From positions 2,925-66,924 of the forward strand of contig JANQEN010000251.1 in the NCBI GenBank assembly GCA_028278335.1: 64,000 nt of DNA. Reading direction: 5' to 3'. The translations under genes were made by a program, and so were the position numbers. Under the pieces are notes generated by a model. The model did no database searches, was not told the origin of the DNA, and worked only from the letters and a program-made list of their open reading frames with translations. The stretch is from Chitinivibrionales bacterium. Lineage in GTDB: Bacteria > Fibrobacterota > Chitinivibrionia > Chitinivibrionales > JANQEN01. Shown here one piece after another: positions 9,125 to 51,500 of this stretch; within the stretch, counting starts at the first letter, position 1; each line of letters opens with the position of its first letter.

Positions 9125-9448
9125 TCAAGCCAAAAGATCTATTACATCGCCTAGCATTTCATCTTGAGTCTTTGCAACTCGAACATTAGCCTTTAGGTTC
9201 TGCTTATTCCGGATCTGCTCTACGCTCTCCTTAGCCAAATCAGTATTTGACATTTCACCGCTTCTATTTGGAGTTTTAGTGATGTGACTTATTCTGGTCC
9301 CCCGCGGTTTCGCCTCTGTTTGATGAGCAGTAGATTCTTCAAAACCTTTAGTGTTGATATTGGCAATATCATGGGCAGAAATGTCCTGCCGAGTGATTGT
9401 ACTCTTGATACCGGAAAGCGAAGGAGAAAAGGATATACGCATAAACAC
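9125..9448 (-). CDS. Short flagellar basal-body rod-type protein
   Basis: 107 aa. It carries the N-terminal rod signature (ISAHDIANINTKGFE) and a C-terminal TDLAKESVEQIRNKQNLKANVRVAKTQDEMLGDVIDL segment like the rod/hook C-terminal helix. Confidence 0.6.
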   Translation of the reverse strand: MFMRISFSPSLSGIKSTITRQDISAHDIANINTKGFEESTAHQTEAKPRGTRISHITKTPNRSGEMSNTDLAKESVEQIRNKQNLKANVRVAKTQDEMLGDVIDLLA

Positions 9449-9597
9449 CTCACCATAAAAATGTGCTGGTATACTTTAATTATACTGGCAATTTGCTAAA
9501 AAAACAATTGAAACAGGGTGAAAGCTTAGATCGGCGCACACCAATTGTGGACCAACGCCTCTCAGTGTCTATCGCATATGATCCAATTGCAATTTTT

Positions 9598-9868
9598 ATA
9601 GAAACAGCCATTTAACTATTATAATCAGAGAGTATTTATCTAGAAACAGAGCCCATCAGATCTAGAGGCAATGGGTAATCGATCTAGAAACAGAGCTATC
9701 AGTTCTAGAAACAAAGGGCAACTTGGCTAGAAACAGAGATGAACCTATCTAGAAACAGGGACATAAACTTTAGAAACAGAGGGTAACGTATCTAGAAACA
9801 ATGCCCTCAAGATATAGAAACAAAGGGATTTTTAGTATAAACAGAGCCACTAAGGCTAGAAACAGCCC
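9598..9868. repeat. Phased motif array: 13 units of (C)TAGAAACAGAG at 21-22 bp spacing
   Basis: TAGAAACA cores start at 9599, 9620 (degenerate), 9641, 9663 (degenerate), 9685, 9706, 9728, 9750, 9771, 9793, 9815, 9836 and 9857. About 11-12 nt are conserved in each unit, and the intervening ~10 nt are unrelated. Two inverted, degenerate copies (CTCTGTCTAG, CTCTGTTTTG..CTAG) lie at 9921-9948. Confidence 0.85.
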
Positions 9869-10099
9869 CACCTAGCATTTTACATACCTATTGGTATATC
9901 ATTGAGTTAGGATTATTTTACTCTGTCTAGCTCTGTTTTGCTTGCTAGGATGGGTGTTTGTCAAATCAGTACGGCTGGCTCCTTTTGATTGATGATTGGA
10001 TTTGGAATTAGCTGCAAAGGATTTGTAAAGTGTGGAGTTTGAAGTGACTAAAGTGAGCTACAGTTAGAAACCTTGAGAAAAATATTGAACATATAATGT

Positions 10100-10700
10100 T
10101 GTAGATTTGCTGCTCAGCCGAAAATGCAGTCGTGCCGGCATCTGCTTCGCGATGCCACACATCACTCGCAATGAAGTTGTATTAGGAAGGAATGTTTAAA
10201 CTAGCCCATAGGGCTTAGACATACCAGCCTGGGCCATCGGCCCAGGTATAAAGACCACTATAAATACATTCGGCCTGGAGGGCTGAAACAATTTAGGAAA
10301 AAGCAAAGTTCGCCCTCTTCGAGGACGATGGATTTGCAATTATCTCATACCCCAGGTTCCTTCGTCACCAGGGGCTACTCAAGGTTATACCCCTTCGGGG
10401 ATAATAAAAATGAGCTCTTCATATCGAAATATTAGATTGCGTCGCTTCGCTCGCAATGACAAATACGGTTTGACCTTGATCAATCTTTTAATTTTTTGAG
10501 TTAGCCAGGCGGAAGGTGGCCGAAGGCCAGTCCGAGCATAGCGAAGACCGACTGGAAGGTAGCCTGGAGCCACGGCGGCCCGAATGAAATGAGGGCAACT
10601 CCCAAATGATTTTAAAACTTTTTCAATAAAAGCACTGAGAATGCACTCAAACGTTTTGAACAAGATTCCCGCTAAAAGTATGCGGGTATGACAGCTTAAG
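10100..10700. repeat. Patch of short GC-rich hairpin (REP/MITE-like) elements in a non-coding stretch
   Basis: Hairpins read directly from the sequence:
- AGCCC-ATA-GGGCT (10203-10215).
- CCTGGGCC-ATC-GGCCCAGG (10228-10246).
- CCTC-TTC-GAGG (~10314-10324).
- CCCC-TTC-GGGG (~10389-10402).
- Nested CCAGGC...CCAGTC...GACTGG...GCCTGG (10506-10568).
- CCCGC-N9-GCGGG (10668-10686).
There are also two CTCGCAATGA copies (~10169, ~10452). Confidence 0.6.
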
Positions 10701-10833
10701 ATCTTAATAAATAAGCATACATGAGTAGTTATGTTAGATAAAAAAAATAGCCCTATGAGATCGTCTTAATAAAAATTATTTTTTGTGCACTTTACAAGCC
10801 GTTCAATTGTTGATAAGGTGCGTGTTCGGTACT

Positions 10834-12090
10834 ATGGATACCCTCATAATTTTAGGTGTTTTAATTCTGTTGGGAAAGTTGGTCTCTTTTTTAAGTGAAA
10901 AGATCAAGTTGCCTGCAATCACTGGCATGATACTTTTGGGTATCCTTCTTGGGCCAACGGTGTTTGGTTTGATAGAAAAGGATGACATAACACCAGAGAG
11001 GATTCACCACCTCTTTAAAGAGGCGGAGGAAAAACATGAACATCCAGAAAGTCTCATGGAGATCATGCCTAAGCAGATAACCTATGAGATTGTCCATTTT
11101 CTTGCGCTAATCGGTGTTATACTCCTGCTTTTTTCCGCTGGATTGGAGACTGATCTCAATGTGTTGATCCGAGCAGGAAAGGTTTCATTTCTTGTGGCTA
11201 TGGGTGGGTTGATAGTTCCATTCTTCTTTGGCTTTGGGCTTTCCATGCTTTTTGATTCTGATAATATTCAGCGGGCGCTCTTAATTGGGACACTACTTAC
11301 AGCCACCTCGGTTTCGGTGTCAGCAATGTCCCTTATGGTGCTCAAGAAGATCCAGTCCAGAGAGGGTACCACCATTCTCACAGCCGCGATCATCGATGAT
11401 GTAATAGGGATAATTATTCTATCATTAGTTTTAGCCATCATTAGTGGCAATCGACAGGAGTTGATTTTTAGTATCATTGCTATTGCCGGCTATCTTGTGA
11501 TTTCTGTACTCGTGGGTATGTATATGGTCCCCTTTATAATGAATTTTTCAAAAAAGATGAATGTTACCCTCAGTGTTACTGCGGTTGCCTTGGCTTTGAT
11601 GTTTATTTTTGCTGGCGTTGCTGAGGTGTCAAAGGTGGCCAGTATTACCGGAGCCTATCTTGCAGGGCTCTTTATCAGTCGAACCCAGTTTAAAAGCATG
11701 GTCTTTGAACGAATAGAGATCATTGGCCACTCCTTTTTTATCCCTCTCTTTTTTATATTTATTGGGCTTCAGGTTAATCTACGAGAGGGTAACTATAATT
11801 GGTTTTTTATTGTGCTTTTTGTTTGTACTGCAATTATTGGTAAAATTATTGGTTCTGGTTTCATGGCACGAGTGAGCGGATTTCCCGCTAAAAGTGCTTT
11901 TACCATAGGAGCTGGTATGGTTCCCCGTGGCGAGGTTGCCTTGGTTATTGCATCTATCGGCATGAGCTACGCAGGATTAATCGATACGAGCACCTTTACA
12001 GCAACAGTCATATTAGTTGTCATTTCATCCTTTATCACCCCAATTCTTTTAGAGAGGGGATTTAAGTCAAAGGAGGCACCCCATGCTTAA
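10834..12090 (+). CDS. Cation:proton antiporter (CPA2 / Kef-type Na+(K+)/H+ exchanger family)
   Basis: Polytopic membrane ORF (~12 TM) with the N-terminal KLPAITGMILLGILLGP motif typical of the Na_H_Exchanger family. The track ORF begins at TTG 10783. I prefer the in-frame ATG at 10834 (MDTLIILGV...). Confidence 0.85.
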   Translation: MDTLIILGVLILLGKLVSFLSEKIKLPAITGMILLGILLGPTVFGLIEKDDITPERIHHLFKEAEEKHEHPESLMEIMPKQITYEIVHFLALIGVILLLFSAGLETDLNVLIRAGKVSFLVAMGGLIVPFFFGFGLSMLFDSDNIQRALLIGTLLTATSVSVSAMSLMVLKKIQSREGTTILTAAIIDDVIGIIILSLVLAIISGNRQELIFSIIAIAGYLVISVLVGMYMVPFIMNFSKKMNVTLSVTAVALALMFIFAGVAEVSKVASITGAYLAGLFISRTQFKSMVFERIEIIGHSFFIPLFFIFIGLQVNLREGNYNWFFIVLFVCTAIIGKIIGSGFMARVSGFPAKSAFTIGAGMVPRGEVALVIASIGMSYAGLIDTSTFTATVILVVISSFITPILLERGFKSKEAPHA

Positions 12091-37807: not shown

Positions 37808-38074
37808 ATGATGGCAAGAATTGGAAAAAAGCAGCTTGAGAAATTACAGAAAAAGTATAAAACCGATGAAGCAGTTGCAAAGCTTTATGGTTTGACGCGT
37901 CAAGGTATCCACAGGTTACGAAAAAAATATGCCATTCCTTCAATTAGTGACAAGAATTCCGAAAGGAATCAAATAATAAAGAGACTGAAAACCCAAGGGC
38001 ACTCTGCTGTAGCATTGGCAAAAAAGTATAGTATTTCAACTACTCAAGTGTATCGCATACTCAATGATTCATAG
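37808..38074 (+). CDS. Small DNA-binding protein with two HTH-like segments
   Basis: 88 aa. EAVAKLYGLTRQGIHRLRKKY and SAVALAKKYSISTTQVYRILN both look like helix-turn-helix units. This is the first gene of the plus-strand block of the RiPP-like locus. Confidence 0.55.
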   Translation: MMARIGKKQLEKLQKKYKTDEAVAKLYGLTRQGIHRLRKKYAIPSISDKNSERNQIIKRLKTQGHSAVALAKKYSISTTQVYRILNDS

Positions 38075-43378: not shown

Positions 43379-43548
43379 GAAAGAGTCGCTGTCGTTCCAC
43401 CACATTCACAATCATAACCCAAATGTGCAAAGTCGACATATCCAGCGGGATATAGGAGGTCGCCAGGTCCAACATCACACCCTGCATGCATCATTTCCAC
43501 AACAAAGGGTTCTGTTTCAATTTTTGGTTTTTCGTAGGGTTTTTTCAT
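43375..43548 (-). CDS. Candidate RiPP precursor peptide (57 aa), unannotated
   Basis: ATG 43548 to TAA 43375-43377 gives MKKPYEKPKIETEPFVVEMMHAGCDVGPGDLLYPAGYVDFAHLGYDCECGGTTATLS. It is the last cistron of the kinase-PqqD-rSAM-S24 operon. It overlaps the S24-like ORF by 32 nt, and its stop overlaps the convergent sulfotransferase stop. It has a leader-like N-terminus, a Cys/Gly/Tyr-rich C-terminus and a C-terminal Ser. Confidence 0.6.
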   Translation of the reverse strand: MKKPYEKPKIETEPFVVEMMHAGCDVGPGDLLYPAGYVDFAHLGYDCECGGTTATLS

Positions 43549-44026
43549 TTTTTGAATCCAGTTTATAGAGTAGAGAGTTTAGTTTGTTTCTAAATCGTTC
43601 TTTCTTGAACCGTACTTTATTTTCTTTAATATATATCCAATTAATTAATCTAAAAAGAAAAAGAATTCTCCAGTTTTGTTGATATTTTGCTTCTCCAATA
43701 ATAGCATTTAATTGTACAATTTCAACTTTTTGAGAATAATCTCCAATAAAAAAGGCATTGTTTTTTATAATATTAATTAGACGATGGAGGAGGAGTTGAT
43801 TTTTATAAATAAAAAGATAGCATTGCCCCTTTTTTAGTGAATGCTTGCTTTGAGTCACTACAACTGTTGTTCCATTAGTATACAAAGGCCACATAGAGTA
43901 ACCTTTTACTGTAATTGAGCAATCATTTTTGCCATCAAATAGAATGTGTTTAACAAGCTTTGGGCTTTCTGAAATCATCAATTCACTTGCTATATTGATT
44001 GTGTAATTGCTCGTGCATAGTTGCAT
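43517..44026 (-). CDS. S24/S26-type (LexA/signal-peptidase-like) serine peptidase homologue
   Basis: 169 aa with the GYSMWP nucleophile motif followed by a beta-rich core. The internal Met at 43978 (MISESPKL) would remove the 37-nt overlap with the rSAM gene and may be the true start. Confidence 0.65.
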   Translation of the reverse strand: MQLCTSNYTINIASELMISESPKLVKHILFDGKNDCSITVKGYSMWPLYTNGTTVVVTQSKHSLKKGQCYLFIYKNQLLLHRLINIIKNNAFFIGDYSQKVEIVQLNAIIGEAKYQQNWRILFLFRLINWIYIKENKVRFKKERFRNKLNSLLYKLDSKNEKTLRKTKN

Positions 44027-45045
44027 ATTTGATTTGAGACATTTTTAAACTGACCAGACTCTGTATGTATTTGTCCTAAACAGATATTACAAACCTTGCT
44101 ATGTTCACAGGTATTACAGGGACAAAGATCTGATCTTCGAAGGTCCTTTAATTCTTGTAATACCGTGGAGTCTTGGATTAGATCGTAGAAAGAGCCCTGT
44201 TGAAGAAGATTTGTAATTTTTAAGTTTCGAAAAGCATTACAGGGATAAATATCACCATTTACGCCGACACAAATGTTCTTATATATACCTTTACAAATCA
44301 ACAACTCATTATTAGGTACAGTTTTGTTTCTTATGTTTTGAAAATGATTCTTTTCGTGTTCTAAAAAAGTTTCAGGTGCATTGTTACAAATTGTTTGATA
44401 AAATGAATGGGTAGTGAATCTTTTAGTTTCCACTGATTGACATATATCTTGAGTGATTATTTTATGCAAGCCAGAGCGAATAGTATATCCTTGCTTTTTA
44501 AAAAATGTATATGTTTCTTTGAACTCCTTTAAATTAAAATCTAACAAATTAAAGCCAAAATGGATATATACCCCAGCATCCTTAAGTTTTGATGCTGTTT
44601 CTAACATTTTTCTTTGTCCTTCATCAACTCCCAGGTATTTGTCATGTAAATCAGCATGGTGTGAGAAAAGGGAAAACTGAAGACTTGAGATATAGGATTT
44701 GTGATTTATTAAAAATTCAATATGCTTCTCAGTTAATAAGGTGCCATTAGACAGAATACTGATATGCCAAAAATCTTTTTTGATTGCATATTCAAGTATT
44801 TCTAGAATGTCATCTCTAATAAAGGGTTCTCCACCAGTAATCACAAGGGTCGCAATACCAGCCTCAGTTAGTTTGTCAAGTATGCCAAATGTCTTTTCTG
44901 TAGATAAATCAGGTATGTTTTTCTCGGATATATAACAATAGTTACAACAAGCATTGCATCGATGTGTTATTTCGAAGGTTGCACTGGAATAAAAGTTTTG
45001 CAATCCAAGGGACAGCAATTTTCTGCTAATGCTGTTTTCTTTCAT
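43990..45045 (-). CDS. Radical SAM / SPASM-domain peptide-modifying enzyme
   Basis: 351 aa. It has CNACCNYC (CX3CX2C), the GGEP motif (ITGGEPF) and a C-terminal auxiliary-cluster region GDIYPC ... CPCNTCEHSKVCNIC ... C. Confidence 0.88.
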   Translation of the reverse strand: MKENSISRKLLSLGLQNFYSSATFEITHRCNACCNYCYISEKNIPDLSTEKTFGILDKLTEAGIATLVITGGEPFIRDDILEILEYAIKKDFWHISILSNGTLLTEKHIEFLINHKSYISSLQFSLFSHHADLHDKYLGVDEGQRKMLETASKLKDAGVYIHFGFNLLDFNLKEFKETYTFFKKQGYTIRSGLHKIITQDICQSVETKRFTTHSFYQTICNNAPETFLEHEKNHFQNIRNKTVPNNELLICKGIYKNICVGVNGDIYPCNAFRNLKITNLLQQGSFYDLIQDSTVLQELKDLRRSDLCPCNTCEHSKVCNICLGQIHTESGQFKNVSNQICNYARAITQSI

Positions 45046-45055
45046 ATTAAGAATT

Positions 45056-45316
45056 CTATGAAAAGGATATAATATGCTTTTCTTCTAACTCCTTAATAAA
45101 TTCCCTCACATCTTTTAAAGCTGAGGAACTGTCAATTTCATAGTGCTGAACAATTGCATTCGCGATCTCTAACTCATTTTCTTTAGTTGAAATTTGTTCC
45201 CAAATGAAGCTTCCCACTTTATTAAAAGTGTGGATCCTAGAAAGCTTTCGATCGAAGATAAAGATCTCTTCACCAATTCTTTTTATTGAGAGGCTGTCAC
45301 CTATGGTTATGTTCAT
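45056..45316 (-). CDS. PqqD-family protein (RiPP recognition element-like)
   Basis: 86 aa. ..IGEEIFIFDRKLSRIHTFNKVGSFIWEQI..EIANAIVQHYEID...ALKDVREFIKELEEKHII is the classic PqqD winged-helix pattern. Confidence 0.85.
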   Translation of the reverse strand: MNITIGDSLSIKRIGEEIFIFDRKLSRIHTFNKVGSFIWEQISTKENELEIANAIVQHYEIDSSSALKDVREFIKELEEKHIISFS

Positions 45317-46309: not shown

Positions 46310-47464
46310 TTAGCCTAACAAACTCAAAACACTCTGAGGTCGAATATTCGCTTGAGCAAGCATACTAGTTGCTGTTTGAGTGATGATTTGATTTTTTGTA
46401 AAATTTGCAGTTTCGCCAGCAAAATCTACATCTCTTATAATACTCTCAGCAGCTTGTTGGTTTGCTTCCGAAGTCAGAAGATTGTTTGAAGTATGCTCAA
46501 GTCGATTGATTGTCGCGCCGATATAAGCACGCATTCTATTGATTCGTTCGATTCCTGTATAGTTGGTGTTGGTCGCATTTGTTACTAGAGCTCCTGCAGT
46601 TGGATTTGTTGTGTCAGTTCCATCAATCACCTCAAGCAATGTTTGCAACTTATCTTGAACGGTTTCACCAAATCGCTGTTGCATTGGAGTTAGAGCCGGG
46701 ATTGGTGGATCTGGATTATCAAATGCATTAGTGGTTTCTGCAAATCCTGTAAGATATTTTATAAATTCTCCACCAATCTGAGCATTCTTAAAAAACAACC
46801 CGGTAGAATCCATTTGTCCTAGCTGAATGGTTATAAGGTTTTTGGCTGATTTATCAAAGCTGTTCAATTGGGCACCAGTATTTAAAGCATCTGAGTCATC
46901 TGTTGAGTAATTTTGACCCACCATCATATTGAAGTGTGTTGCCTTTCCATTGTCATCTGCACCAAATACAGCATCGCTAGTATCATCCCAGATTGTTCCT
47001 GCTACTAGAGATCTTTTTGGGTCTCCATTAGCGGAATCAGCATCGTCAAATAAAGCAAAAAGCCTCATTCCATTATAGTTTGTAACCTGTGCAATCCTAT
47101 CCAATTCTCTTGTTAGAGCTTCGAATTCTTCACCCATATAATTGCGCTCTATTTGAGTGTATGTATCATTTTTTGCTTGGACAACAAGCTCGCGCATACG
47201 TTGCATGATATCAGACTGTTCATTGAGTGCACCCTCCGCAACATTAAGTAAAGCAATAAAATCCTGGGTGTTATTCATTGCCTGACCCGCTCCACGTACT
47301 TGAGTTCGCAGATTCTCGGAAATACCCAGACCCGCTGCATCATCGGATGCTCGGTTGATTCGGAGTCCAGTGGAGAGTTTCTCTAAAGATTTGGACATTG
47401 ATCGGCTCGATTTGAAAAGGGAGCCTTGGCTGACCATTGACGCTATGTTGTGATTTATTCTCAT
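46310..47464 (-). CDS. fliC: Flagellin
   Basis: 384 aa. The N-terminus is MRINHNIASM...LSTGLRINRASDDAAGLGISE. The C-terminus is ..INRLEHTSNNL...ESIIRDVDFAGETANFTKNQIITQTATSMLAQAN. Confidence 0.95.
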   Translation of the reverse strand: MRINHNIASMVSQGSLFKSSRSMSKSLEKLSTGLRINRASDDAAGLGISENLRTQVRGAGQAMNNTQDFIALLNVAEGALNEQSDIMQRMRELVVQAKNDTYTQIERNYMGEEFEALTRELDRIAQVTNYNGMRLFALFDDADSANGDPKRSLVAGTIWDDTSDAVFGADDNGKATHFNMMVGQNYSTDDSDALNTGAQLNSFDKSAKNLITIQLGQMDSTGLFFKNAQIGGEFIKYLTGFAETTNAFDNPDPPIPALTPMQQRFGETVQDKLQTLLEVIDGTDTTNPTAGALVTNATNTNYTGIERINRMRAYIGATINRLEHTSNNLLTSEANQQAAESIIRDVDFAGETANFTKNQIITQTATSMLAQANIRPQSVLSLLG

Positions 47465-48549: not shown

Positions 48550-51500
48550 ATGGCCCTTGAAACAGAAATGTCCATTTCAGTTCTGGAAGAGAAGTTAAAA
48601 AGTAATCCCCTTTCTTTGATTTTTTCTCGCCTCGCCGATTCCTATAGAAAAAGTGGTGATGTTCAGAAAGCGATTGAAATCTCTACAGAGGGATTAGAGT
48701 CACATCCCGATTATGTCACCGGTAGAATTATTTTGGGCCGATGTTATTTAGAACAAGAAAATTTCAATGACGCCATAAAAGAATTTACCAAGATATGCAC
48801 ACTGGACAGACGTAATCAAATAGCAATTAAGATGCTTGCGGATGTTTTTTCTAAACAGGGTATGGAGGAAAAAGCCGGTGATCTTTATCAAATGTTGTTG
48901 AGGATGGATCCTGATAATCCTTCACTTATTCATTTGGCCAGCGTGTTTGCTGGTACAGGAAGCACTGATGTCTTTGAAGTTTTAGGGATTGAAGATTTTG
49001 CTGCCCCTTTACCAATCAGCAAAGCTGAGGTTTCAGAAGAGGACGTTGAGCAAGAATTAGAGGCTTCTCTTGACGAGGCTCCTCTGGAAACTGCCCCGCC
49101 AGAAGCCACTCCCACTCTTTCTGCAGAGGAAACTTCGGAATTTCCACCACTTGAGCCGAGCTTAGAGGATCAAACCCCACAAGAACAACAGCTCGAAGAA
49201 ATGCCATTGGATGCACCGGAAATCCCAGGACAAGAGGACTCCAGTCTAGATAATCCTGAGGATAAAATGGAAGTGTTAGAAAGTGATACTGATAAGGTCT
49301 CTGAAGGGGTTGTTGCGCTTGATTTTGAAGAGCCTTCTGACTCTGGAAAGGAAGAAGAGGAGTTTACTTTAGAGCCTAAAGAGGATGGTGATCCCTCAAT
49401 CAAGGAGATCCATACCCTTCAAACTATGGAACCAGAACAATCCGAAGAATCATTAGAAATTGAAGATAGTGTTGAAGTGGTAGAGCCTTCGGCTGATGAG
49501 TTGAAAGAAGATGAGTTGAAAGAAGAGGAGTTGAAAGAAGAGGAGCTGAAAGAAGAGGAGCTGAAAGAAGAGGAGGCTCTTCAAGCTCCCGAAGAATTAG
49601 GGGAAGAGCTAGCTATTCCATTGCAGAGTGAAGAAGAAGGTGTTGAAGATCTTTTGAATCCCCAGGAATCAACTAAAGATCTTCCAGGTGAACTCCCACC
49701 TTTACAGCCAGCAATAGACATTGAAGAGGAATCAACAACCAGTGATGAACTGAGCGATAGAATGGATTCAATGTTTGGTGAGGAGGAGTCAATCGAGGAA
49801 TCACTTCCTGAAGCCATTGAACCGATTGAGGAGTTAACCACCAAAGAAGTAGAGCAACAATTGGATTCAGAAGTACAGGATAGTCCTGAAATTCCTGAAG
49901 AGGATGATTTATCTGATCGTCTGGAGGACATGTTTAAAGAGGAGTCTACCGAGCCAAAAATTCCAGAATTTGATCTTCAAGGCTCGAATGAAATGCTTGA
50001 AGAAGTTGAACTCCCACCGCTTGAGGAGGAGAAGTCTCAAGAGGACGGCATACCTGCCCTTCCGCAGTTTGATACGGAAGAGGAGGAAGGAACAGACCAA
50101 TTTATACTAGATGAAACGATTGAATCGGAAGATAAACCTGAGTTAGAAGTACCCATTTTAGAGGACGATCCTGTAGAATCATCCATAGAGAGTGATGTCC
50201 CAATCCAAAATGAAGCCTTGAACGAAGAGGTGTTGACAGAAGGGATAATGACTCAGGAAGTTGAAATAGAGATTGATGCGCCTATTGAAAGCGAACAGCC
50301 CTTTGATAAGGCAACTGAAGTCTTTGAAGTTGAACAACAGGAATCTTTAATAGAAGATATATCTACTGAGCAAGATGATCCAATTGGCACTGATGATGAA
50401 ATTGAAGCAGAGGAAGAGTCGGAACAAACTAAGATTATTAGCTTTGGTGAACAGACATCCTTTGAGACTCCGGAACCATCTCAAGATATTCCAACTATTG
50501 ACGAGGAGGGGACCGAAGATTTAATTACTGATGCAACTGCAGTTTTTGATAGGGAGAAAATAAAAGAGATCGCCTCTTCGGTGAGTGATGAAATTGAAGT
50601 GTCCGCAGAATCACCTATAAGTAGTGAAGTTATGTCCCGATTAGATGAAATGTTTGCCGATGAAGAGGGAAAATCTGAAACAAGTCAATTGCAAAAACCA
50701 GAGACGAGCCTCTATGAGTTTACAAAAACAGAGGAACTATCAGAAGAGACAACTGAGGAAAATTTACCCTCTGGAAAAGACGTGGCCTCACATTTTGATG
50801 AAATATTTTCACCTGAACAACCAAAGGAAGAGGAGTCTTTTGAGCCTTTACCATTAGAAAATGTTGAGGAGAGCGAATTGGTCAGTGAGTTTTATGAGGA
50901 AACTCAGGAGCCAGTAATAGAACCTGAAACACCCAGTGCATTGGATGAAGATTTTGAACTCTCCGAGGATGAAGTTCAAAAAATTGAGCAAGTCACAAAA
51001 GAGATCGATACTATTGAAGATGATACACTTGACATAATTGATGGCGACCTATCCTTGGATAACCTTGATCTTGACACTCTTGACGATGAGGATGATTTAG
51101 AGCTTACCACTGATTTTTATACTGAGGAGGGAGATACTGCTGATTCTTCTGAGACAGCCATTGACATTGAAACAATTGAGTCTAAAGATGAAGCTGTTAT
51201 TGAATCAGATTCAGATACTGAAGAGGAATTGAAAGAAGAGGAGCCTGTTGCATTTGCTTTAGACTTAACAAATACGGAACAAGATCAGATTGAGAAAGTC
51301 GATCCACTCTTGGAGGATGATTCCTTAACCGATCATTCTGCTGTTGATGCGATTCCTGATGAGCCAATAGAGGAAGAGAGTGCTGTGCATGGAGAATTTT
51401 ATACTGTTGCTGGAGACGAAGCTGTACCCGAACCTGAGGATGTTCCTCAAGTTGAAGAAGCTATCCAAGAGGAGGTAGAAGAGGAGGCTCGTGAAGACAC

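Follow-up and report, generated by a model that had tools for sequence, protein, structure and literature searches.

The locus and its phased array

The window, i.e., the whole stretch of 64 kb that was analyzed, originates from an uncultured Chitinivibrionales (Fibrobacterota) bacterium in a coral metagenome, and its context includes housekeeping genes (DapF, LptE, a tRNA). The left flank of the feature under study comprises genes for a DinG-like helicase-exonuclease, LptE, DapF and a small Flg_bbr_C protein, while a Na+/H+ exchanger (from 10834), an EIIA-2 protein and further genes make up the right flank. Exact protein entries were looked up for three of the right-hand genes, and none was on record. 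Both gene blocks are separated by the longest internal gap of the window (9443-10833). A preliminary description of this DNA had reported a non-coding stretch of 1.3 kb here. The stretch is present, but its true span is 1.39 kb and its right half consists of REP-like repeats. The Flg_bbr_C gene is an orphan, located apart from other flagellar genes, and has a good sigma-70-like promoter of its own (TTGTTT, 17 nt, TATAAT) around 35 nt 5' of the ATG.

Words from the REP-like repeats reach a depth of up to 10,330 in the sequencing run, compared to 21 for the genome. As these elements do not recur elsewhere within the 64 kb, much of this depth may stem from other community members. A structured RNA at 10130-10620 was considered and rejected, since the depth of the TTCG-loop hairpins in this region makes them better read as high-copy REP-like repeats. 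An independent Logan assembly of the run stops at 10239 and restarts at 10578, and positions 10258-10293 are carried by one 170-nt contig only, with a depth of 6. It is within these repeats that the left and right gene blocks are joined, at a point that coincides with a synteny break in relatives. Given that the assembly is interrupted 290 bp past the right side of the array, both the adjacency of the two blocks and the lack of a gene to the right carry a caveat.

Table 1. Coordinates of the element, its surroundings and the matching contigs (positions in the window)
Feature	Position	Strand	Remarks
Gene of the 105-aa Flg_bbr_C ("rod-like") protein	9125-9442	-	Pfam
Left edge ("leader")	9596-9639	+	Two degenerate first units, recognizable in two paralogs
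Phased array, 13 co-oriented units	9598-9867	+	12-nt core CTAGAAACAGAG plus 9-10 nt spacer, 21-22 bp pitch
Starts of 12-mer cores 1-7	9598, 9619, 9640, 9662, 9684, 9705, 9727	+	Direct reading
Starts of 12-mer cores 8-13	9749, 9770, 9792, 9814, 9835, 9856	+	Direct reading
AT-rich spacer between array and inverted copies	9868-9920		GC 30% overall, 23% for 9878-9920 (43 bp)
Degenerate inverted unit copies, two to three, with indels	9921-9960	-	Reverse-complement reading
Non-coding tail	9961-10077	+	Homologous in paralogous copies
REP-like GC-rich short palindromes	10104-10158, 10204-10247, 10312-10401, 10420-10473, 10492-10617		TTCG or CGAA loops
619-nt contig, matches	9626-9693, 9815-9981		100 nt between instead of 121 nt
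598-nt contig, matches	9771-9794, 9813-9911, 10022-10065		
19,871-nt contig, match	9792-9886		8 differences, 2 gaps
564-nt contig, match	9626-9660		

The thirteen phased, co-oriented motifs of the preliminary description are confirmed; the starts given there are each one position higher and denote the T of TAG. Read from unit 1 to unit 13, the cores deviate from CTAGAAACAGAG by 3, 3, 0, 4, 0, 1, 0, 1, 1, 2, 2, 2 and 2 mismatches. Exact cores (n = 3) and cores with one (n = 3) or two mismatches (n = 4) thus leave units 1, 2 and 4 as degenerate, with three or four mismatches. The consecutive intervals are 21, 21, 22, 22, 21, 22, 22, 21, 22, 22, 21 and 21 bp, and this uniformity (12/12 either 21 or 22 bp) supports the claim that the motif is presented at a pitch of two helical turns. 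Autocorrelation within the array accordingly peaks at 21/22, 43, 65 and 87 bp. At lags 10-11 it does not rise above background, by which half sites of the OmpR/PhoB type with an 11-bp sub-period were rejected. A quasi-crystalline pitch, in which selection would have spread the 21s and 22s evenly, was also rejected, as 148 out of 210 arrangements do as well. Nearly all information of a unit resides in TAGAAACAGnG, i.e., positions 2-10 and 12 of the 12-mer. Each of the ten high-information core columns keeps one base in at least nine of the 13 units, and the ten best of the 22 columns are contiguous (combinatorial probability of 3.7e-4 in a post hoc test). That only some 11-12 nt of each unit are conserved is therefore borne out, in the form of a single uninterrupted block of about 11 bp. 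The separate Logan assembly of the run contains the array with 100% identity.

The array is real and under selection. With at most two mismatches, the core is matched 19 times in the whole 64 kb, compared to 6.05 ± 2.4 times in shuffles, and none of 100 shuffles reaches 19. Ten of these matches fall in 9640-9867. When scored with a weight matrix, the array units obtain 14-21 bits, and only one site of at least 14 bits is present outside the array in the 64-kb window (both strands, 128 kb). The tetranucleotide CTAG is avoided in the genome (62 seen versus 116 expected). A number of 11 out of these 62 occurrences lie within 9640-9948, a local 39-fold excess.

The spacers were presumed to be unrelated between units, yet they fall into two alternating classes, which are CCCATCAGAT-like and GGTAACGTAT-like: spacer similarity at offset 2 amounts to 0.475 versus 0.358 in shuffles (p = 0.003). 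Overall spacer identity across the array is around 37%, and TRF reports a 43-bp period with 80% matches. This alternation and the 43-bp period indicate that the array expanded as blocks of several units were duplicated, after which the core was kept. Hence, the earlier argument against simple tandem-duplication decay holds in part: the array did grow by duplication, but uniform decay alone does not give a pattern in which the core is retained. As the spacers drifted while the core columns stayed, core and pitch have been selectively retained.

Additional parts surround the array (Table 1). On the left, similarity of at least 80% stops at around 9618 and does not extend further; the loose ends of paralogous contigs that match the left edge are TTTAAGAAACAGTCATGTCATTTTAATATA and TTTAAGAACCAGCCATTTCATCTTAATACA. 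A small hairpin (ATACC-TATT-GGTAT) is found inside the AT-rich spacer. The inverted copies that had been noted after the array are real, but they contain indels and reach 9960. The reverse complement of 9919-9960 reads CAAACACCCATC CTAG caagca AAACAGAG CTAG ACAGAG TA. Together with 9860-9877, the inverted copies form an imperfect long dyad around the 43-bp segment of 23% GC, and the DNA fold of this dyad (9860-9960) has a z of -2.9. The tail contains a lone TTAGAAAC at 10064-10071, and the depth within 10022-10077 (including 10043-10064) is about six times that of the genome.

Paralogous copies, relatives and collections

The Logan contigs of the run were compared with the region at 80% likeness, which yielded further contigs with matches to parts of the element and with dissimilar flanks. 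These contigs (619, 598, 564 and 19,871 nt) are 80-90% alike to the element. Depths of 22.6, 25.4, 23.1 and 23.5 were found for the paralogous contigs, compared to 21.2 for the contig of the window itself. The 30-nt loose ends past the matches are still recognizably homologous and carry motif-like words. Besides the copy in the window, the same genome contains homologous loci of equal depth at no fewer than three places, and the number of additional copies is probably four or five. The search for further arrays that the preliminary description had proposed is thus answered positively within the same genome (at least three loci). As the array, AT-rich spacer, inverted copies and tail recur, they compose one dispersed repeat of around 480 bp (about 9596-10077). 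More generally, an array that seems unique in a single window can belong to a dispersed family, which becomes visible at a relaxed identity of reads or contigs.

The paralogs also allow the constraint on the core to be assessed independently of the comparison within the array. The differences listed between paralogs affect 13 out of 42 eligible spacer positions versus four out of 49 core positions (Fisher p = 0.007), in a small test on 91 positions, for which the paralogs were represented by these listed differences and by 30-nt loose ends. Three of the four core changes occur at the low-information positions 1, 10 and 11. This bias towards the spacers supports a constraint on the core. Together with the contiguous block of about 11 bp and the 21/22-bp intervals, it upholds the earlier notion that selection acts on a short motif rather than on the whole unit.

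The nearest homologues of the flanking proteins are found in Chitinivibrionales and Chitinispirillaceae (Fibrobacterota), with an identity of 50-61% for the small Flg_bbr_C protein and 59-70% for the exchanger. In these relatives, the Flg_bbr_C gene is preceded by 90-230 nt and then by a histidine kinase or another gene. In three of the loci (L112, L114 and L117), this gene follows either a MASE6-PAS hybrid histidine kinase or a 1072-aa protein. TetR/RND or other genes lie 5' of the exchanger with gaps of 138-328 nt, and the gene order on the right-hand side is wholly kept. The upstream region of neither flanking gene contains a phased array in the relatives compared. With the array absent 5' of both genes, the element is located at a synteny break. 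The conservation in relatives for which the preliminary description had suggested to look is thus not observed at the syntenic places. That description regarded absence from close relatives, together with a lack of enrichment of the motif elsewhere and of specific binding in extracts, as evidence against a functional array. The first part applies, whereas the second is countered by the further arrays in the same genome. By sequence comparison, the element is lineage-specific, with the reservation that these relatives are distant and hence give little information on recent conservation.

Genome, metagenome and viral collections were scanned for TAGAAACA occurring three times at a 21-22 bp pitch, and viral contigs also for a two-unit pattern. 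Among the matches listed from these genome, metagenome and viral scans, no homologous array is present; these matches, several hundred in number, are ordinary whole-unit tandem repeats, many of which are coding. Likewise, BLAST gave no match for either the array or the tail against 72,556 plasmids and none for the array against 50,697 phages, and a search of the literature on the motif and on orphan iteron-like arrays retrieved nothing relevant. The element is thus multi-copy in its own genome and absent from the relatives and known collections that were compared. Six metagenome contigs (L141, L147, L164, L199, L214 and L237) carry unrelated arrays of 21-22 bp units, ATAGAAACAGGGTTGTTTCAC. These units are palindromes (GAAACA..TGTTTC) that are phased like the array described here, but with the whole unit conserved.

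Candidate explanations of the array

Plasmids build origins and centromeres from phased arrays of short sites. Well-known iterons are those of the R6K gamma origin (seven 22-bp repeats), P1 incA (nine repeats) and RK2 oriV (17-mers on a 22-bp pitch). The array shares with them co-oriented units at a pitch of about 22 bp that are conserved in part, and an AT-rich segment and inverted partial repeats nearby; its 13 units agree with the definition of iterons as at least three helically phased direct repeats of 17-22 bp. In addition, a minimum of the cumulative GC skew is located at around 6.5 kb, inside the DinG-like gene and 3 kb to the left of the array, and the true right neighbor is not certain, given the gap that begins in the independent assembly 290 bp past the array. 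Nonetheless, it is highly improbable that the array serves as iterons in the origin of a plasmid or phage, as a partition centromere (perhaps the relic of an integrated replicon) or as a chromosomal origin, as the preliminary description had considered for plasmid origins and centromeres. A Pfam search over the 64 kb (ORFs of at least 150 aa and small intergenic ORFs) returned no Rep, ParA/B, DnaA, integrase or transposase domain, in line with the earlier remark that no rep or par gene is associated. A rep gene is thus lacking next to the array, up to the assembly break on its right, and there is no par operon alongside it either, with no ParA, ParM, TubZ, ParB, ParR or ParG domain in the window. 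DnaA boxes with at most one mismatch occur 26 times in the 64 kb versus 19.6 expected, and not once in 9449-10780; a DnaA-box cluster as in oriC is therefore missing, and the AT-rich 43-bp segment by the array is without such a box. The stretch of negative skew is no longer than 5 kb, and the skew dips in a similar way once more at 55-57 kb. Moreover, a single locus on a plasmid, phage or chromid would be expected, whereas the array has housekeeping chromosomal neighbors, at least three further loci in the same genome and no similarity to plasmid or phage sequences. About 11 bp are conserved here, compared to 17-19 bp for the two-domain Rep proteins of iteron plasmids. Since the array is chromosomal and several loci occur in one genome, it would not be a replicon's own origin or centromere. 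With both the partner genes and the single-locus replicon context lacking, it may work in the manner of iterons or centromeres while belonging to neither family. As a separate observation, the + strand is G-rich from around 6.5 kb to 55 kb whatever the gene orientation, and there is too little sequence on the left for an origin call.

Other known systems resemble the array in part. Tandem-repeat centromeres, such as R1 parC (10 repeats of 11 bp), pSK41 parC (20-bp repeats), F sopC (12 repeats of 43 bp) and pBtoxis tubC (12-bp repeats), also comprise many phased direct sites in some 10-13 copies, onto which a cooperative filament of adaptor proteins is loaded. However, the present array has no adjoining NTPase and adaptor genes, is not on a plasmid and occurs at several loci. 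E. coli datA and the six DnaA-box clusters of Bacillus subtilis are dispersed clusters of initiator sites, which are similarly intergenic, numerous and without a gene of their own, serving a protein that is encoded elsewhere. They consist of irregularly spaced DnaA boxes, whereas the array is strictly phased, with a motif that bears no relation to TTATCCACA. Transposon ends with multiple transposase sites (the 22-bp TnsB sites of Tn7, Mu, Tn402) and bacterial MITEs and BIMEs share with the element the dispersed non-coding copies (80-90% alike here), the direct sites of around 20 bp and the position among interspersed repeats. Several dispersed copies with unlike flanks, as are typical of MITEs, are indeed found. 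On the other hand, 13 sites lie on one side, compared to three to four per transposon end, no convincing terminal inverted repeats or target duplications are seen in the window copy and no transposase is found in the 64 kb. Two further classes were rejected. A CRISPR array requires repeats of at least 23 nt and spacers of at least 20 nt, as opposed to a 12-nt core with 9-10 nt spacers; no cas domains were found, and the best Rfam CRISPR-DR match scores 19 bits versus a threshold of 35 (E = 1.4). A ToxI-type array of a type III toxin-antitoxin system does not fit units of 21-22 nt that are half variable, and no downstream ORF of at least 40 aa is present on the + strand. The minus-strand gene downstream of the array in this comparison is the Flg_bbr_C gene, which occurs without the array in relatives.

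The array may also act as RNA, or not act at all. A family of sponge sRNAs, in which the array would be transcribed, each unit would offer a single-stranded motif to an RNA-binding protein and the paralogs would be sibling sRNAs, is conceivable yet unlikely. Known sponges include CrcZ and CrcY of Pseudomonas, with A-rich motifs, and CsrB, with roughly 18 GGA motifs. Like CsrB/RsmZ and CrcZ, the element measures a few hundred nt, contains many copies of a short motif that alone is conserved between variable linkers, and has several paralogous non-coding siblings in one genome. The core AGAAACAGA can be read as three A-R-N triplets, of the kind that Hfq binds with its distal face. This fit is, however, post hoc for one of many motifs compared, with a chance of about 1% per motif. 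No stable structure is predicted, as would hold for a single-stranded sponge: the RNA fold is not significant on either strand (z = -1.1 and -1.6 for the array; z = +1.7 and +0.1 for the tail, 9950-10215). A TATAAT at 9620-9625 in the conserved left edge accompanies a promoter-like match at 9595-9622, but promoter-like matches as a whole remain at chance level (4 versus 4.8 in shuffles) and a terminator is lacking after the array on both strands, which sets the element apart from the known sponges. GGA is not conserved in the units, which argues against a CsrA sponge, and sites in DNA more typically show such a strict 21-22 spacing and a core with CTAG. The sole public run with the locus is a DNA run (the coral metagenome), and no RNA run contains it. 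Rfam gave chance matches only (gathering threshold for the whole window; E up to 10 for 9400-10900). Conserved RNA hairpins between CCC- and GGG-type spacers were rejected, as pairing occurs in only two out of five unit pairs and the z of the fold is not significant. A neutral minisatellite in a decaying selfish repeat, shaped by slippage or unequal exchange in a repeat-rich "junkyard" with the core as a by-product, is judged quite unlikely. It would agree with the duplication history that is still present in the spacers, with edge units that are more degenerate than the central ones, with the variable array length of the paralogs (as in the 619-nt contig), with a lineage-specific locus that adjoins REP-like repeats at a synteny break and with the lack of a partner gene and of a known homologue. 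Yet, uniform decay does not yield ten contiguous near-invariant columns beside near-random ones, differences between the paralogs are four times as frequent in spacers as in cores, and the cores of the central units are intact although their spacers have diverged.

Our preferred explanation, to which we assign a probability of somewhat less than one half (around 45%), is that the element is a dispersed, lineage-specific repeat whose working part consists of phased sites for a DNA-binding protein that is encoded elsewhere. A contiguous block of one helical turn, a CTAG-containing core, a two-turn pitch and an AT-rich dyad favor, as far as can be judged from the sequence, an array of sites at the DNA level. 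Each 11-bp core TAGAAACAGnG, spanning one helical turn, would be recognized by one subunit of a protein that binds DNA sequence-specifically, and, owing to the 21-22 bp pitch, neighboring sites would lie on almost the same side of the helix. In such an arrangement, we propose that the 13 sites can load a cooperative protein filament, which the 23% GC spacer and the distal inverted sites may close or pair. What we infer is a function of the motif at the DNA and not the RNA level, cooperative binding and the nature of the putative binder. The binder may serve the element family itself, in mobilization or maintenance, and any effects on the promoter of the neighboring rod-like gene would be merely incidental. 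Such an element-serving role is favored by the dispersed and lineage-specific character of the family and its location with other repeats at a synteny break, whereas a host regulon is less favored, as other promoters in the window have no single sites close by. Some observations weigh against the preferred explanation. No candidate binder linked to the array was found in the 64-kb window, the lack of strong single sites elsewhere in the 64 kb leaves no sign of a regulon, and comparative support comes from the paralogs only, with no homologous array in the collections searched. Nor did the window copy show terminal inverted repeats or target duplications that would prove mobility.

A bolder variant, which we deem very unlikely, is that the copies are genome-wide loading pads for a filament-forming protein, or chromosomal iteron decoys that titrate the initiator of a cognate plasmid or phage. 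Loading pads would imply a chromosome-organizing, segregating or titrating system in Chitinivibrionales that uses phased 11-bp sites instead of ParB/parS or DnaA boxes. Iteron decoys would imply that the cognate plasmid or phage is excluded by titration of its initiator. In general, a gene-less, multi-copy family of chromosomal arrays would indicate an unrecognized DNA-binding system, an unusual mobile element or a new sponge RNA, here in a barely sampled phylum (Fibrobacterota, with the Chitinivibrionales).

Other features of the window

A region of low GC content (33-38%) extends over 16475-47464 and ends at a flagellin gene (46310-47464, minus strand). Among its products are GT41-TPR glycosyltransferases, sulfotransferases, FkbM and other methyltransferases as well as an ABC-2 exporter, and the region resembles an island for flagellin glycosylation. 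At 37808-38074 (+), an 88-aa protein with two helix-turn-helix motifs (HTH_3-like and resolvase-type HTH_7) is encoded. It is the only lone small candidate binder in the window, located 28 kb from the array and without a link to it. Consecutive genes for a peptidase S24-like, a radical SAM and a PqqD-like protein are located at 43517-45316 (-), the usual trio for RiPP-type peptide maturation. Finally, a near-perfect 15-bp tandem repeat of 5.2 copies (GAGTTGAAAGAAGAG) occurs at 49498-49575, in frame within the gene of a 1123-aa TPR protein.
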